Origin: a virus
Lineage: Duplodnaviria; Heunggongvirae; Uroviricota; Caudoviricetes
Virus record (IMG/VR): IMGVR_UViG_2531839666_000025
Coordinates: 1 to 4,389 of that record
DNA: 4,389 nt
Strand: one strand, 5' to 3'
Position 1 is the stretch's first letter; each line of letters starts with the position of its first letter. The notes beneath the pieces are model-generated. The model did no database searches and was not told where the DNA came from. It was given only the letters and a program-made list of their open reading frames with translations. Positions 1 to 4,389 of this stretch are shown here, piece after piece. Made by a program: the position numbers and the translations under genes.

Positions 1-673
1 TTATTCCTGTGCCCAGCCAACCCTGTATGCCAGGATCTCATCCGCACTGCTCAGCGATTCCAGGTCCTTCTTCATGGTGCGCTGGCGAATGTGGATTTCC
101 ATCCCTTTAGTGAACATCGCCTGCTCTGCCGCTTCACTCAGCGCAATAAGCTCTTCTGCTGTCACCGGCACATCATTGTTTTCCGCATCCGTCCAGAAAA
201 ACGCCTCCGGCAGTTTCCCCGCTTTCGCTGCCGCCACCGACGGCTCAAGACGCGTCTGCGTTGACTTCCCGTAGTCCCATTTACGCCCATTGTGCTCAAA
301 CGTGTAGTTCGCCGCTTCCATCTCATTACGCCAGGCGTTAATTTCATCGCCCTTCATCCCGCGCGCTTTCTCCGCGGTCAGCAGGTCCGTGATTTTCTCC
401 CCGTCAAAAACCCCAGCGCCCCGAGATGTCAGCTTTGCGGTTTTCTTCCGTATCCGCCACCTCCACCACACTCTGGCCCACTGGCCACAGAACTGACGCC
501 ACCCTGCCGATGCCGGTAATGACTCCGGCACTGTTATAAACCACCTTCAGCGTCTCTGCTGAAAATAACGACTGACACTCATACCAGTCCTGACCATCCT
601 CTGATTTCAGGTACATCGCACCCGGCACATCCGGATTTTCCGGCGTGTATTGTCTGAAATTCTTTATGTGCAT
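1..673 (-). pseudogene. tfa: Tail fibre assembly protein (P2 gpG / Tfa chaperone family), reading frame broken by a 1-nt indel; intact equivalent would be about 223 aa
   Basis: Two overlapping minus-strand ORFs (673..404, 89 aa; 531..1, 176 aa) together resemble one Tfa. The first matches my recollection of the P2 gpG N-terminal region (SEDGQDWYE...KVVYNSAG...SVVEVADTEENRKADISGRWGF). The second matches the conserved C-terminal region of the tfa at 2905..3495 (INAWRNEME...RLEP...FFWTDAENNDV...). ATG at 673 is preceded by GGGAGGA with an 8-nt spacer; stop at 1..3. Confidence 0.75.
406..414 (-). other. Homopolymer tract (plus CCCC/AAAAA, minus TTTTTGGGG) where the tfa-1 frame switches
   Basis: Minus strand reads TGG GGT TTT TGA (W G F stop) in the upstream frame and GTT TTT GAC GGG GAG AAA (V F D G E K) in the downstream frame. 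Removing one T from the T5 run gives a continuous ...GRWGFDGEKITDLL... matching P2 gpG ...GKWMFKDGAVV... as I recall it. Confidence 0.7.
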
Positions 674-714
674 CTGTAAGTCCTCCCGGTTACATATCTG
701 ACAGGTGATGCGCT

Positions 715-2448
715 TTATAACGAAAAATACTCACGCCCCGGCGCTCCTGACGACACATACTCACCAACACCAACGGTGCGCCAGTGAGAGCCATCAAACG
801 TCATCTGCAGCGGCCTGTAGTAAATCGTTGTAACACGGCTGACGCCGCCCTGAGTGTTCCCCGAAAGCCCTGTAATGACTGAACCATCAGCCAGATTAAC
901 TGACCAGCCATGGTCCCCCTCCTGCAACTCATACGTTACCGGATTCCCCAGCCTGAAGCCCATGACACGACTCTTCCCGTCATCTCCTGATGCCCCCGGC
1001 GGCCCCATCGGCCCGGTTTCTCCACGCTCACCTCTGGGACCGGGGTCGCCTTTCTCCCCTTTCGGTCCCTGCGCTCCCCGCGGACCAGCGGGGCCTGTTG
1101 CTCCCGTTTCACCTTTCGGACCCTGTGCTCCGGGGTCGCCTTTCTCTCCTTTCGGACCGGGAACACCACCTCCTGCTGCAGCCTCTTCTGCCTTTGTTTT
1201 CGCTTCATTTGCCACATCCATTGCCGCCTTCACGGCCTTCGGCGTGGCTGCCTTTGTTTCGTCATTACTGCCAGTATCACTGCTTAACTGCACCACACCT
1301 TTCTGCGTCGTGCTGGCATCCCGCTGGCTGACCGTATCCGGTTTGTTTTTTGTGCTGTAATCCACCCGCCAGTGGAAATACTGTGTGTCGCCGTAAACCG
1401 TACAGGTACAGACCGTGCCATTAATAAACCCCGTTGCACCGTATTCGCCAATGGTGACCCGGACTATGGCAGCCTCATACGTCCCCATCACCTCAATGAC
1501 ACAGCCACCCAGATTGAGTTTTCCCGGTCCGACATCCGTGATGACTTTATTCATTGACGCAGGCAGTGATGCCTTCATCATCCAGTAAGGCTGGTCAAAT
1601 GCCCCTTTTTCTTTCAGCCAGGCGACAAACTCGCTCGTGGTCCATTCACCGGCCCCCGTATGAATGTCCCGCCCGTATACTCTGGCTGCTCCCACGGTGT
1701 TCAGAAACTTCACCTTATCCGGGATATCGTCACCGTTTTTCGCTTTCTCCAGGCATCCGTCCGCTTTGTCCATTGCCGCTTTCACCGCTTTCGGGGTGGC
1801 TGCCTTCGTTTCATCATCACTGTCCGTTGCGCTGCTTAACTGCACAATTCCCTTCTGTGCCGTCGTCGCATCCGGTCCTCCCGGCTCGCCTTTTTCGCCC
1901 TTCTCTCCCCGTTCACCTTTCACACCCTGAAGCCCCTGTGGTCCTGTCTCACCACGCTCACCCTTTGGCCCCCGCTCGCCGGTATCGCCTTTTGGCCCGG
2001 GAATACCCTGCGGCCCGGTGTCCCCCTTATCCCCCTTCGGTCCCCGCGCATTCTCTGCCCGTTTTTTTGCCTCCTCCGCACTGGCTGCGGACGCTTCCGC
2101 ACGTTTCAGGATTTCCGCTGCCACCGCTTCCAGCTCTGCAAGGGCTTTCGGGTAATACTGTGCGTCTTCCAGGTCCATCAGAAATTTATTCAGCGTTCCC
2201 GGTGCAGAATCCGCCTTCACCAGAATGTCACCCACATATGACGGCGCGTACCCTTCCGTGTTCAGCGTCACCCGGTACAACCCCGGCTCAACATCCATAC
2301 TGTAACTGCCGGTTTCCCCCGGCTGACCATACGCCACCGTGGTGACAATCACCGTCTCCGTTGTGCGGCGCGCTTTCAGCTCTATCGTGCATCCCGGTAC
2401 CGCTTTTCCCGTACCATCCTTCAGCACACCCGATATTCTGACTGTCAT
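715..2448 (-). CDS. stf: Side tail fibre protein, 577 aa: lambda Stf-like N-terminal domain, two collagen-like Gly-X-Y tracts, two tail-fibre repeat motifs, a central globular domain and a short C-terminal domain
   Basis: N-terminus [28 protein letters not shown] resembles lambda Stf [28 protein letters not shown] (from memory). Uninterrupted Gly-X-Y at aa 136-192 and 428-491. Motif [30 protein letters not shown] occurs twice (aa 196-228, 380-412). ATG at 2448..2446 preceded by GGGGGA; TAA at 717..715. Confidence 0.9.
976..1167 (-). repeat. Collagen-like Gly-X-Y coding tract 2 (about 21 triplets, stf aa 428-491)
   Basis: Translation [64 protein letters not shown] with Gly at every third position. 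The proline-rich plus-strand ORFs here are its antisense shadow. Confidence 0.9.
1213..1311 (-). repeat. Tail-fibre repeat motif, copy 2 (stf aa 380-412), a diverged direct repeat of 1765..1863
   Basis: [33 protein letters not shown]. At DNA level, ...ccattgccgccttcacggccttcggcgtggctgcctttgtttc... here parallels ...ccattgccgctttcaccgctttcggggtggctgccttcgtttc... in copy 1. Confidence 0.85.
1765..1863 (-). repeat. Tail-fibre repeat motif, copy 1 (stf aa 196-228)
   Basis: [33 protein letters not shown]; same motif as in lambda Stf ([28 protein letters not shown], from memory). Confidence 0.85.
1873..2043 (-). repeat. Collagen-like Gly-X-Y coding tract 1 (about 19 triplets, stf aa 136-192)
   Basis: Translation [57 protein letters not shown] with Gly at every third position. 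Confidence 0.9.
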
Positions 2449-2453
2449 GGATT

Positions 2454-2459
2454 TCCCCC
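2454..2459 (-). promoter_or_regulatory. Probable Shine-Dalgarno sequence of stf
   Basis: Minus strand GGGGGA followed by AATCC then ATG (2448). Confidence 0.5.
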
Positions 2460-2461
2460 AT

Positions 2462-2496
2462 AAAAAAACCGCAGTACCGGTTTCCCGGCCTGCGGT
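2462..2496 (-). terminator. Intrinsic (rho-independent) terminator, probable 3' end of the hok-like transcript
   Basis: Minus strand ACCGCAG-GCCGG-GAAA-CCGGuA-CUGCGGU followed by UUUUUUU: outer 7-bp stem, inner 4-bp CCGG/CCGG stem, GAAA tetraloop, then a T7 run. The T-tract ends 13 nt before the stf ATG. Confidence 0.7.
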
Positions 2497-2559
2497 AAAA
2501 TTTGTGGTTTGTTGGTGTTAAAACGGTGCCATCCGGCTGACCACCCTCAGCAACCGGTC

Positions 2560-2582
2560 GGCGGGGGATATTCTCCCCCGCC
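2560..2582. repeat. Perfect 9-bp GC-rich inverted repeat with a 5-nt loop, in the 3' untranslated region of the hok-like gene
   Basis: Plus strand GGCGGGGGA-TATTC-TCCCCCGCC (2560-2568 pairs with 2574-2582). No adjacent T-run on either strand, so it is more likely a structural or stability element than a terminator. Confidence 0.5.
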
Positions 2583-2590
2583 ACGGTTTC

Positions 2591-2731
2591 TTACTGCTTA
2601 CACTGTAAGAACGCCGCAATCTCCGCGCCCGCTATCCGGAACCGGAACTCGCACAGTGAACTGTGGGTGATCCAGATAATGAGCACTACCGTGATACAAA
2701 TCACGGTGGTTTTTAACGGTTTTTGCGACAT
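2591..2731 (-). CDS. hok: Hok/Gef-family type I toxin, 46 aa (small single-pass membrane peptide)
   Basis: Hand translation of the minus strand gives MSQKPLKTTVICITVVLIIWITHSSLCEFRFRIAGAEIAAFLQCKQ. It has a hydrophobic helix (TVICITVVLIIWIT) followed by the Hok hallmark SLCE..R.....E(I/V)AAF..(C/Y)K; compare R1 Hok ...[28 protein letters not shown], recalled from memory. ATG at 2731..2729 preceded by AAGGAG with a 9-nt spacer; TAA at 2593..2591. Not in the supplied ORF track. Confidence 0.8.
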   Translation of the reverse strand: MSQKPLKTTVICITVVLIIWITHSSLCEFRFRIAGAEIAAFLQCKQ

Positions 2732-2740
2732 AAACGCTTG

Positions 2741-2746
2741 CTCCTT
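2741..2746 (-). promoter_or_regulatory. Shine-Dalgarno sequence of hok (AAGGAG) with an adjacent anti-SD
   Basis: Minus strand CCUCUCC-GUAAAA-GGAG-CAAGCGUUU-AUG. The CUCC immediately upstream can pair with GGAG (plus-strand palindrome ctcc-ttttac-ggag, 2741..2754). Confidence 0.6.
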
Positions 2747-2876
2747 TTACGGAGAGGCGCTAACCTTTCACTTGCTTAGGATGAATGGTCAGGCCTCGGG
2801 TTAAACATGAATGTTTGTCCGGGGCCTTTTCACATCCGGCCTTCAGGTGTTCCCTCCGGCCATCAGCCAAAGGCAC

Positions 2877-2898
2877 CCGTGCATAATGTACGGTTTTT
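2877..2898 (+). terminator. Candidate plus-strand intrinsic terminator, possibly the 3' end of an antisense (Sok-like) RNA; speculative
   Basis: Plus strand CCGUGCA-UAA-UGUACGG (7-bp stem with one G-U pair, 3-nt loop) followed by UUUUUAUU. It lies antisense to the predicted hok leader, immediately beyond the tfa-2 stop. No convincing promoter found upstream. Confidence 0.3.
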
Positions 2899-2904
2899 AT
2901 TCTG

Positions 2905-3495
2905 TTACGTAAATACCGGCTCCTCACTCCCCCAGCCGGGCTGATAGCACAGTACATCACGGTATCGCGTCATCCCCGCAATCTCCTGTTTCATCTGTCG
3001 CTGTCTTTCGTGGATCCTGAAACCGTGCGCCACCATCGCCTGTTTCATGGCAACACCCAGCGCCTTCAGTTCATCAGCGTCTACCGCCACATCATGATTA
3101 TCCGCATCTGTCCAGAAAAAACGTTCCGGTAAATGTTCTGTCACTGCAAGCACGGGCTCCAGACGGCTCAGTGAGCGCTTACCTGCATCCCAGCGTCGCC
3201 CCTGCCATTCAAACACAATTTCTTTATTTTCTTCCTCATTTCTCCAGATGTTAATCCTGTCGCATGCCTTCTCTTTTTCCTTTTCCAGCATATCCTGACT
3301 TTCACGCCACGGTGTCACCGCTCCATACTGACCACCGGCAATGGCGGCAAACAGTTCACGCCATATCACATCGGGATCATGCGGCATCACAACGATATCC
3401 ATCCAGCACTCCCCCGACGGTAACTTCATTTCAGCATGAATGTTTCCGCTTTCGTCATACCTCGCATGACGGATTTCTGTAACGATCTCCGGCAC
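2905..3495 (-). CDS. tfa: Tail fibre assembly protein (Tfa chaperone family), 196 aa, apparently intact
   Basis: C-terminal two-thirds (DRINIWRNEEE...RLEPVLAVTEHLPERFFWTDADNHDVAVDADELKALG...) is paralogous to tfa-1; the N-terminal about 85 aa differs. GTG start at 3495..3493, 9 nt after the upstream stop, preceded by AAGGGGGG; TAA at 2907..2905. Confidence 0.88.
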   Translation of the reverse strand: MPEIVTEIRHARYDESGNIHAEMKLPSGECWMDIVVMPHDPDVIWRELFAAIAGGQYGAVTPWRESQDMLEKEKEKACDRINIWRNEEENKEIVFEWQGRRWDAGKRSLSRLEPVLAVTEHLPERFFWTDADNHDVAVDADELKALGVAMKQAMVAHGFRIHERQRQMKQEIAGMTRYRDVLCYQPGWGSEEPVFT

Positions 3496-3504
3496 AATCC
3501 CCCC

Positions 3505-4389
3505 TTAAAGCACATGAACCTTCTCATTTCCTGCCCGGAATAACGTGCCACCGTTACATAGAACGCTGATCGTCACGCGACAGTTATAATTCAGGGGGTT
3601 ATGAAAGGCGCGCACGTAACGATACCGGACATAAATCCGGTTGCGGTTTCCCCTCCCCTTTGCCGGAAGCGTGAATCTGTAAATCCAGTCATAATTTTCC
3701 CACACCTTATGCTTCAAATTCCCGGGCCCCCATTCTCCTGACGACCAGACAGTGGCAATTCCACCATCTGCACTATCAGTGCCGACACTGACTTCCCACC
3801 AGGCAGAAACAAGACCAGGATTGCCCTCAGCTCTGAAGGCTATCTTCATGTTAACATCAAAAAAACGATCGAAGTTTTCCCCGTCAACATTCAGAAAAGG
3901 GATCCATTCGTTATCTCTCTCCTTTACACCATCCCGTGAGCTGACACCACTGAACACAACTTTATTGATTTCAAACAGGGAGCGGTAATAAACATCGCCA
4001 AGAATATTACCGGCATCCACTGTTCCTTTAACGACGCAGTTTTCTGCAATGGTCACGTTATTCAGCGTGCCCGAGTTCGCACTGATATGTCCGCTGATGT
4101 CCGCATTACGGGCCGTCAGCCTGCCGTCCGGCGTCAGGGAGAACGTCGGGGGATTGCCGGACGAGGTGATGCTCACCGCAAACAACCGCTTCAGGAACAC
4201 ATCGTTCATGAACAGCTGATTCCCCTGCGCCACAAACAGCGGCGTGGTGTTGCCGTTCTCCGGGTTAATCATCGCGATACGGTCCGCCTGCAGCAGTATA
4301 TTGCTCAGGGGCTGGCCATCAGCATCCTCAATCCCCGCACCTATACCGGCAACATACGGAATGCCGTTTTTTGTTTCTGCACCTTCAGC
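3505..4389 (-). CDS. J: Host specificity / central tail fibre protein (lambda gpJ-like), C-terminal 294 codons; N-terminus lies beyond the window
   Basis: The frame is open from the window edge ([17 protein letters not shown]...) through the track ORF to TAA at 3507..3505. The segment [22 protein letters not shown]...[38 protein letters not shown] matches my recollection of lambda J ([18 protein letters not shown]...[41 protein letters not shown]). The last about 190 aa do not resemble the lambda J C-terminus. Confidence 0.8.

Follow-up and report, generated by a model that had tools for sequence, protein, structure and literature searches.

The window analyzed here is the whole stretch of 4,389 nucleotides (nt) that forms positions 1 to 4,389 of the IMG/VR virus record IMGVR_UViG_2531839666_000025 (Caudoviricetes). 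Its minus strand carries a gene of 577 codons, with the Shine-Dalgarno-like motif GGGGGA 5 nt before the ATG, which very probably encodes an Stf-type side tail fiber of a lambdoid Escherichia coli prophage: a trimeric mosaic on collagen stalks that contains a cassette composed of a Phage_fiber_2 motif (Pf2) and a globular central domain, referred to as the knob throughout. A RefSeq coding sequence (CDS) of the same length (1734 nt) is present at a 98% identical locus of E. coli JNEC-KY176, where it is named 'prophage tail fiber N-terminal domain-containing protein'. The borders of the modules were set by direct counting of residues and triplets in the 577-amino-acid (aa) protein and are as follows.

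715..2448, minus strand: side tail fiber gene, 577 aa plus stop, one intact open reading frame (ORF)
2044..2448, minus strand: PfN anchor, aa 1-135 (PF08400 phage_tail_N and match to 9e7m)
1873..2043, minus strand: collagen tract 1 (Col1), aa 136-192, 19 Gly-X-Y triplets, 57 aa, about 16 nm, ending in GEPGGP
1744..1872, minus strand: Pf2 copy 1 (Phage_fiber_2, PF03406), aa 193-235
1321..1743, minus strand: central domain (knob), 141 aa, aa 236-376, homologous to 8ju3_A
1192..1320, minus strand: Pf2 copy 2 (PF03406), aa 377-419
1168..1191, minus strand: Ala/Glu/Lys-rich helix or linker after Pf2 copy 2, to aa 427
970..1167, minus strand: collagen tract 2 (Col2), aa 428-493, 22 Gly-X-Y triplets, 66 aa, about 19 nm
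718..969, minus strand: C-terminal tip domain, 84 aa, aa 494-577, divergent PfC-like
1217..1321 (plus) and 1769..1873: arms of a direct DNA repeat, 105 nt each, in the Pf2 copies

Pfam assigns phage_tail_N to aa 1-134 (E 3.7e-40, full profile covered), Phage_fiber_2 to two stretches (E 3.1e-35) and Collagen (PF01391) to two further stretches (E 1.1e-18), and the protein matches the tail fiber family phrog_366 (E 1e-121). Together with residue counting, these matches confirm the module order given by the original prediction, which was made from the sequence alone. The globular domain that it placed at the center exists as well, with 141 aa instead of about 150. The mirrored arrangement that it described holds for the order of modules only: every module lies in direct orientation, and each collagen tract is preceded by a short Ala/Glu/Lys helix, which is a direct and not a mirrored arrangement.

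Identity of the anchor, the knob and the tip

The collar domain occupies approximately aa 1-91 of PfN; a linker then leads to an Ala/Glu/Lys-rich helix (aa 99-134, read from a low-confidence structure model) that abuts Col1. Residues 1-91 match chain Ta of 9e7m, the N-terminus of Stf in the tail tip of Ur-lambda (61% identity by Foldseek; E 7.2e-28 by sequence). At the gpV-gpM junction of Ur-lambda, a collar of twelve subunits is built from the first 91 residues of Stf; it carries four trimeric side fibers, which raise the speed of adsorption 10-30 fold (PMC12617516). Genomic context agrees with this match. Relatives show the gene order J, (hok), stf, DUF4376 at the prophage end, with the tail genes L, K, I, and J upstream and host genes beyond, and the window itself holds the C-terminal part of J upstream. 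The fiber gene is also found in the phage genome records 1720a-02, phiSTEC1589-Stx1c, and P13771. Thus, the assignment as a side tail fiber is upheld by the collar match, the position after J, the DUF4376 neighbor, and the phage records.

Collagen-like proteins of prophages in enterohemorrhagic E. coli (EHEC) have been published as EPclA-D (Ghosh 2012, PMC3368898), which bears out the remark in the original prediction that such fibers are known in pathogenic E. coli. For EPclA, a trimer, a collagen triple helix, and a trimerizing PfC domain were described, and collagen lengths of EPcl proteins vary between copies by multiples of three residues (PMC3368898). With its PfN domain, its uninterrupted (Gly-X-Y)n domains, and its location in a prophage tail module, the fiber belongs to the EPcl class and is closest to EPclC. 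As in EPclC, a PCoil is missing, Col1 starting at aa 136 right after PfN. However, where EPclC, whose tip is not a PfC, has a single Pf2 between its collagen domains, the window protein has two copies flanking the 141-aa domain; the single-Pf2 state is found in a natural allele, P0390, described below. The order PfN-Col-Pf2-knob-Pf2-Col-PfC-like is absent from EPclA-D as published (PMC3368898), yet it is common in databases.

The 120 best homologues listed for the fiber protein all originate from E. coli. A scan of species-representative genome contigs with Pf2-knob-Pf2 returned six weak loci, mostly Pf2-only, none of which had the full architecture outside E. coli. Among 5,426 complete E. coli genomes, the PfN subtype occurs in 165 (388 places) and the knob in 94 (183 places).

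The central domain has homologues in a part of the variable region of Mu S' and in P2 H, P1 S', and P7 S. In the match to 8ju3_A (Mu S'), fiber residues 193-254 correspond to 111-172 and residues 225-372 to 175-324 (E 1.2e-30 for this domain). As a contiguous unit (aa 193-370), the Pf2+knob cassette recurs with 42-52% identity in P2 H, PSP3, Yersinia P2-like phages, P1 S', P7 S, D108, SfMu, and some lambdoid stf genes. Homologues of the knob were identified in 73 phage records (tblastn) and fall into 273 clusters at 50% identity, in which the domain is usually interior to fibers of 300-1400 aa. Among 150 cluster representatives, Pf2 lies directly upstream of the knob in at least 38 and on both sides in five; the combination of knob, PfN, and collagen on both sides is restricted to the present family and one other cluster. 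The spacing from Pf2 to Pf2 is always 184 aa in the 120 best homologues.

The tip gives a weak, sub-threshold match to PF06820 (PfC), with E 0.0089 and 16.8 bits against a cut-off of 25 bits, over profile positions 3-61 of 64. Five of nine related tips match the same profile at E <= 1. Aligned with the PfC domain of EPclB, the tip has the RLG, ITG, LQ, and W positions in common. Among its relatives the framework is kept, while the loops between RLGN and YRPLQ are hypervariable, as expected of a receptor-binding end; presumably, the tip serves both trimerization and receptor binding. A search of the single tip sequence against the PDB gave no match, and the tip profile matched the unmodelled C-terminus of the phiTE short tail fiber (E 1e-4). 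A weak likeness to the C-terminus of Mu S' (E 770) found no support. The homologue search with the 201 aa from Pf2 copy 2 to the C-terminus retrieved only proteins of at most 352 aa, mostly contig-end fragments, and thus gave no information on architecture; the length of its matches seems to be limited to about 1.75 times that of the query.

Three tip types were seen among the alleles. The tip of the window protein is about 57% identical to that of the next allele, the remainder of the protein being more than 90% identical. This exact tip type is rare, with 13 places in 7 of the 5,426 complete genomes, mostly of human isolates of Shiga toxin-producing E. coli (STEC).

Repeats, stalk length and a natural knob-less allele

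The original prediction proposed that both the fiber repeats and the collagen tracts are diverged direct repeats at the DNA level, about 550 bp and 900 bp apart, respectively, and that they could change the length of the shaft or delete the central domain by slippage or recombination. For the fiber repeats this is correct: positions 1217-1321 and 1769-1873 are 80% identical over 105 nt and lie 552 bp apart. The 43-codon Pf2 segments differ at 39 bases, 23 of them in third codon positions, and in 26 codons, 14 of which are synonymous; this indicates that the copies are old and have been held by selection at the protein level. The longest exact repeat between them is 14 nt, and codon shuffles reach up to 15 nt. 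The core of copy 1 has the same amino acid sequence as the single Pf2 of EPclB from O157:H7, while copy 2 and its linker are nearly identical to the single Pf2 and linker of P-EibA ORF-401.

No such relation exists for the collagen tracts. Col1 and Col2 start 876 bp apart, and their best local DNA score (14) was reached in 207 of 500 shuffles of Gly-X-Y units, so that their likeness reflects the periodicity of Gly-X-Y coding and no specific relation beyond it. Recombination between Col1 and Col2 was rejected, the similarity not being above background and no fused-collagen allele being present among those read.

Deletion of the central domain has a natural counterpart. The window protein was shortened in silico by recombining Pf2 with Pf2, and the product was used as query. 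Its top match, P0390, comprises 380 aa and aligns in one piece with 99% identity and 97% coverage; it is incomplete because its contig ends inside PfN. The corresponding gene (locus L008, E. coli O146 draft assembly GCA_018100305.1) has the same length as the in-silico 552-bp in-frame deletion, from which it differs at 20 of 1144 nt (98.3% identity), none of these mismatches falling within the 167 nt at positions 533-699. The switch from copy 1 to copy 2 takes place inside the common 11-nt GCGGCAATGGA (window 1769-1779 and 1217-1227). Import of this junction from an EPclB paralogue is less likely, as the 167 nt are 93.6% identical to EPclB versus 100% to the window halves. Hence, the knob is present or absent among 98% identical alleles, with the junction in the repeat, and P0390 equals the deletion that repeat recombination had been predicted to produce. 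On the strength of these sequences, recombination between the Pf2 copies can apparently excise the knob without breaking the reading frame.

Whether the knob was lost or gained is a matter of parsimony. The knob-less P0390 cluster consists of a single member sequence on one contig, while the knob is present in 120 of the 120 best homologues, which makes loss the more parsimonious direction. EPclC ORF-401 has the same anchor and no knob.

Variation of stalk length is the second outcome of the allele comparison that the original prediction had suggested, and it is concentrated in Col2. While nearly all of the 120 best homologues have a Col1 of 19 triplets, Col2 ranges from 20 to 72 triplets in the same set. 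In the full set of proteins retrieved, Col2 comprises 10-26 triplets when combined with the tip type of the window protein and 12-72 triplets, with modes at 36, 48, and 60, when combined with the ...LFQRIS tip. In the 688-aa allele P0010 (L004 5350-5778), a 108-bp unit of Col2 is repeated 4.0 times with 95% identity. Such a tandem unit explains the 36-aa steps and the length classes of 580, 616, 652, 688, and 717 aa. At 0.286 nm per residue, the distal stalk would span approximately 17 to 62 nm. The window allele is a short form of Col2 that lacks the 108-bp array: Tandem Repeats Finder reported no tandem array in it, and its longest exact repeat inside Col2 is 17 nt (codon shuffles up to 15). 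A change in shaft length is thus seen in the family (Col2 of about 10-72 triplets, 108-bp unit) but neither in an array of the window allele nor in Col1, which is nearly fixed. Judged from these alleles, population variation consists of changes of the distal stalk in steps of 3 aa and 36 aa (108 bp), and of swaps of the tip among at least three types.

The tracts contain nine (Col1) and seven (Col2) [KR]G[ED] motifs. GxPGGP, with which Col1 ends, is a conserved interruption motif of the first collagen domains of EPclB and EPclC (PMC3368898). A deviating Col1 was observed in P0006 (535 aa, complete genome), which has a 40-aa in-frame deletion between IPGP and PGGP, aligned to aa 150-190 and ending at short repeated Pro-Gly-Pro / Gly-Gly-Pro codons. 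Many database entries of the fiber gene family are contig-end fragments, suggesting that the gene family breaks short-read assemblies. In the draft L017 (GCA_000752455.1), the same fiber region is broken up into many short ORFs, which points to numerous frameshifts or an assembly of low quality.

Neighboring genes

Downstream of the fiber gene, the window contains one further gene.

1..673, minus strand: DUF4376 gene, presumed fiber chaperone (PF14301, E 2.8e-18), split into ORFs 404-673 and 1-531

Proteins with DUF4376 are tail fiber chaperones in the Alteromonas phages V22 and A5 (PMC7289586, PMC10579305). In comparison to the intact 223-aa gene of the 98% identical locus L001, the window copy is frameshifted by one extra A in the run 406-410, which is either a pseudogene mutation or a homopolymer sequencing error. 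Intact copies are present in L008, L016, and L018.

Upstream, a Hok/Gef family toxin ORF of 46 aa (window 2591-2731, minus strand) is located between the J module and the fiber gene, in the position taken by lom in lambda and P-EibA. No Sok-type RNA was found above Rfam thresholds; Rfam gave no matches in general, and the scan for promoters and terminators returned nothing relevant.

At window positions 2899-4021, the distal 171 aa of J and an extra DUF4376 gene of 196 aa (2905-3495) replace 545 bp of the closest complete genome. This 1.1-kb segment had no megablast match in the 5,426 complete E. coli genomes, and a tblastn search of 50,697 phage records gave no match to the distal end of J. 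The 196-aa DUF4376 protein is nevertheless recorded in 268 blocks of the assembly collection, on draft contigs of up to 200 kb. On the four contigs displayed, DUF4376, hok, and the collagen/Pf2 fiber gene follow in identical order, and another DUF4376 gene is located downstream of the fiber gene; J was called in L018. The segment looks like an orphan J receptor-binding end accompanied by its own chaperone.

Working model, alternatives and known systems

Mosaic tail fibers that swap parts at conserved motifs are well established; Haggard-Ljungquist 1992 and Sandmeier 1994 are reportedly the relevant sources. Along this line, the gene would have originated when a 'Pf2 + knob' cassette from the P2/Mu/P1 fiber pool joined a 'Col-Pf2-linker-Col' fiber of the EPclC/EPclB type at Pf2. 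A join at Pf2 is the simplest reading of the mosaic that these sequences suggest, and it would account for why Pf2 occurs twice and why the order resembles a mirror image; the 'symmetry' is best read as a by-product of this join rather than as a designed feature.

In the structure that we propose, three chains would form one fiber, whose N-terminal domains (about aa 1-91) enter the tail-tip collar in the manner of Ur-lambda Stf. From there, a short coiled coil (aa 99-134) would lead into a collagen triple helix of about 16 nm, followed by a knob region consisting of Pf2, the domain of the Mu S'/P2 H type, and the second Pf2. Beyond this region, another short helix and a distal collagen stalk (about 19 nm) would carry the small PfC-like tip, which would trimerize, bind the receptor and probably fold with the aid of the downstream DUF4376 protein. 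Both collagen spacers may be stabilized by charges in their [KR]G[ED] motifs. The expected shape, three globules on two stalks, would resemble the images of EPclB (PMC3368898). Such a fiber would speed up or broaden adsorption before the central fiber J meets its own receptor. The hinge of lambda Stf lies at residues 394-422, directly after the proximal rod (PMC12617516), and its Pf2 motif at about aa 355-395. As Pf2 in lambda closes the proximal rod immediately ahead of the hinge, the Pf2-knob-Pf2 block might work as a joint.

Several points weigh against this picture. The AlphaFold2 monomer of the fiber protein (alignment of 46 sequences) has a mean predicted local distance difference test (pLDDT) score of 36, with 60-83 for the tip alone, and is unusable, so that the folds of knob and tip are read from homology; a Foldseek search of the PDB with this model found nothing beyond the N-terminal match to lambda Stf. 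The PfC match of the tip is weak, staying below the Pfam cut-off. Trimerization, triple helix, receptor, and dependence on a chaperone are transferred from homologues. The knob-less allele is represented by one draft assembly. Exact identity between the Pf2 copies extends over no more than 14 nt, which is short for recombination of the RecA type, and exchange events must therefore be rare. Finally, with its chaperone gene frameshifted, the window copy may make no working fiber.

The last point could be taken further, in that the locus might be a decaying remnant in a defective prophage that makes no functional fiber, its repeats being fossils of past shuffling. The location at the prophage end beside host genes in relatives and the many paralogous copies in E. 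coli, in up to 6 places per genome, would fit such decay, as does the frameshift itself. Yet the extra A sits in a homopolymer run and could be a sequencing error, the 577-codon ORF is intact, near-identical alleles are accompanied by an intact chaperone gene, and the fiber is part of records deposited as complete phages, including Stx phages. As the preponderance of third-position differences between the Pf2 copies also speaks for constraint at the protein level, we consider the remnant improbable. A different role, outside the virion, would be that of a collagen-like surface adhesin or virulence factor that the bacterium expresses from the prophage, similar to streptococcal Scl. Collagen-like proteins are adhesins in some pathogens, and STEC isolates are enriched among the best matches, but the N-terminus is an Stf collar domain that binds the phage tail, the gene resides inside the tail module between J and a gene of the fiber chaperone type, and Pfam and PHROGs yield phage tail fiber domains exclusively. 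An adhesin is thus extremely unlikely.

The remaining alternatives concern the duplicated Pf2 in a fiber that is otherwise a side tail fiber as proposed. The two-fold arrangement may be functional, if each collagen helix needs a flanking module for trimerization or registration; Col-Pf2 and Pf2-Col would then be selected as a unit, and the knob would be a hinge or a second receptor-binding site. Each collagen tract is indeed directly preceded by the short Ala/Glu/Lys-rich helix and bordered by Pf2, the constant spacing of 184 aa in all 120 alleles listed is compatible with such a unit, the Pf2 motif of lambda Stf immediately precedes the hinge, where the proximal rod ends (PMC12617516), and rotary-shadowed EPclB has its middle globule at the position of Pf2 (PMC3368898). 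However, a single Pf2 suffices between the two collagen domains of EPclB and EPclC, most knob-bearing fibers have Pf2 on one side only, and an in-frame knob-less allele exists, which leaves this possibility doubtful, though not without some plausibility. Conversely, the duplicated Pf2 could act as a standing recombination joint, at which lysogen or phage populations lose or regain the knob and swap the distal stalk and tip at measurable frequency. We regard this as very unlikely; if true, the joint would be a low-rate switch of fiber architecture and host range that works without an invertase.

Taken as a side tail fiber of the EPcl class, the window protein adds one architecture to the published EPclA-D scheme and no new mechanism. 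The locus combines three well-known modes of fiber evolution in one gene: tandem change of collagen length, swap of the tip, and the acquisition or loss of a whole domain at a conserved motif. Nothing in it is surprising to a phage specialist, the deletion allele being a neat confirmation of a predicted deletion. Since side tail fibers set the adsorption speed and strain range of Stx and lambdoid phages, their variation bears on the spread of virulence genes in E. coli.

Among known systems, gp27 of Alteromonas phage V22 and gp9 of A5 are chaperones of the DUF4376 type. There, too, the gene right after the fiber has a C-terminal DUF4376, but the domain family alone is in common, and the window copy is frameshifted. 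Mu S' (gp52, 8JU3), P2 H, P1 S', and P7 S share the cassette of Pf2 and about 140 aa with 42-52% identity; they are, however, baseplate fibers of myoviruses with another N-terminal attachment and without collagen. In Mu, P1, and P7, the cassette is part of an invertible DNA segment, whereas the window contains no invertase, and its fiber gene is not flanked by long inverted repeats (the longest has 21 nt at 76%). An inversion switch of the Mu/P1 type was rejected for this reason.

Ur-lambda Stf (9e7m) resembles the window protein in its collar (61% identical over about 90 aa), its Pf2 motif, and the location of its gene after J. In contrast, lambda Stf has an Ala/Ser-rich coiled-coil shaft and a distal part like T4 gp37 that binds OmpC (PMC12617516). 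Lambda has the chaperone Tfa (orf-194), and lom between J and stf, where the window has DUF4376 and hok, respectively; no gene of the Tfa type (Caudo_TAP) was found downstream of the window fiber, the gene there matching DUF4376 only.

P-EibA ORF-401 (EPclC, 479 aa) has a PfN domain that is more than 90% identical over aa 1-135 and, like the window protein, no PCoil. Two collagen tracts, the first 19 triplets of which end in GxPGGP, a Pf2 with the AKTKAEEAA linker before Col2, and a downstream gene of the DUF4376 type (ORF-191) are further common features. Unlike the window protein, ORF-401 has one Pf2, no 141-aa domain, and a ...LFQRIV tip, and its first collagen domain goes on after the GGP interruption to a total of 117 aa. 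EPclB (O157:H7 Z1483/ECs1228 type, an Stx2 phage fiber) differs by another N-terminal part with PCoil, collagen domains of 157-190 and 114 aa, the absence of a knob, and a canonical PfC, to which the tip of the window protein is distantly similar. It shares the Col-Pf2-Col core, and its Pf2-linker unit is found in more than 300 complete genomes with about 97% DNA identity. The single Pf2 of EPclB corresponds to the core of copy 1 joined to the linker of copy 2 and has the same amino acid sequence as that of the natural deletion allele.

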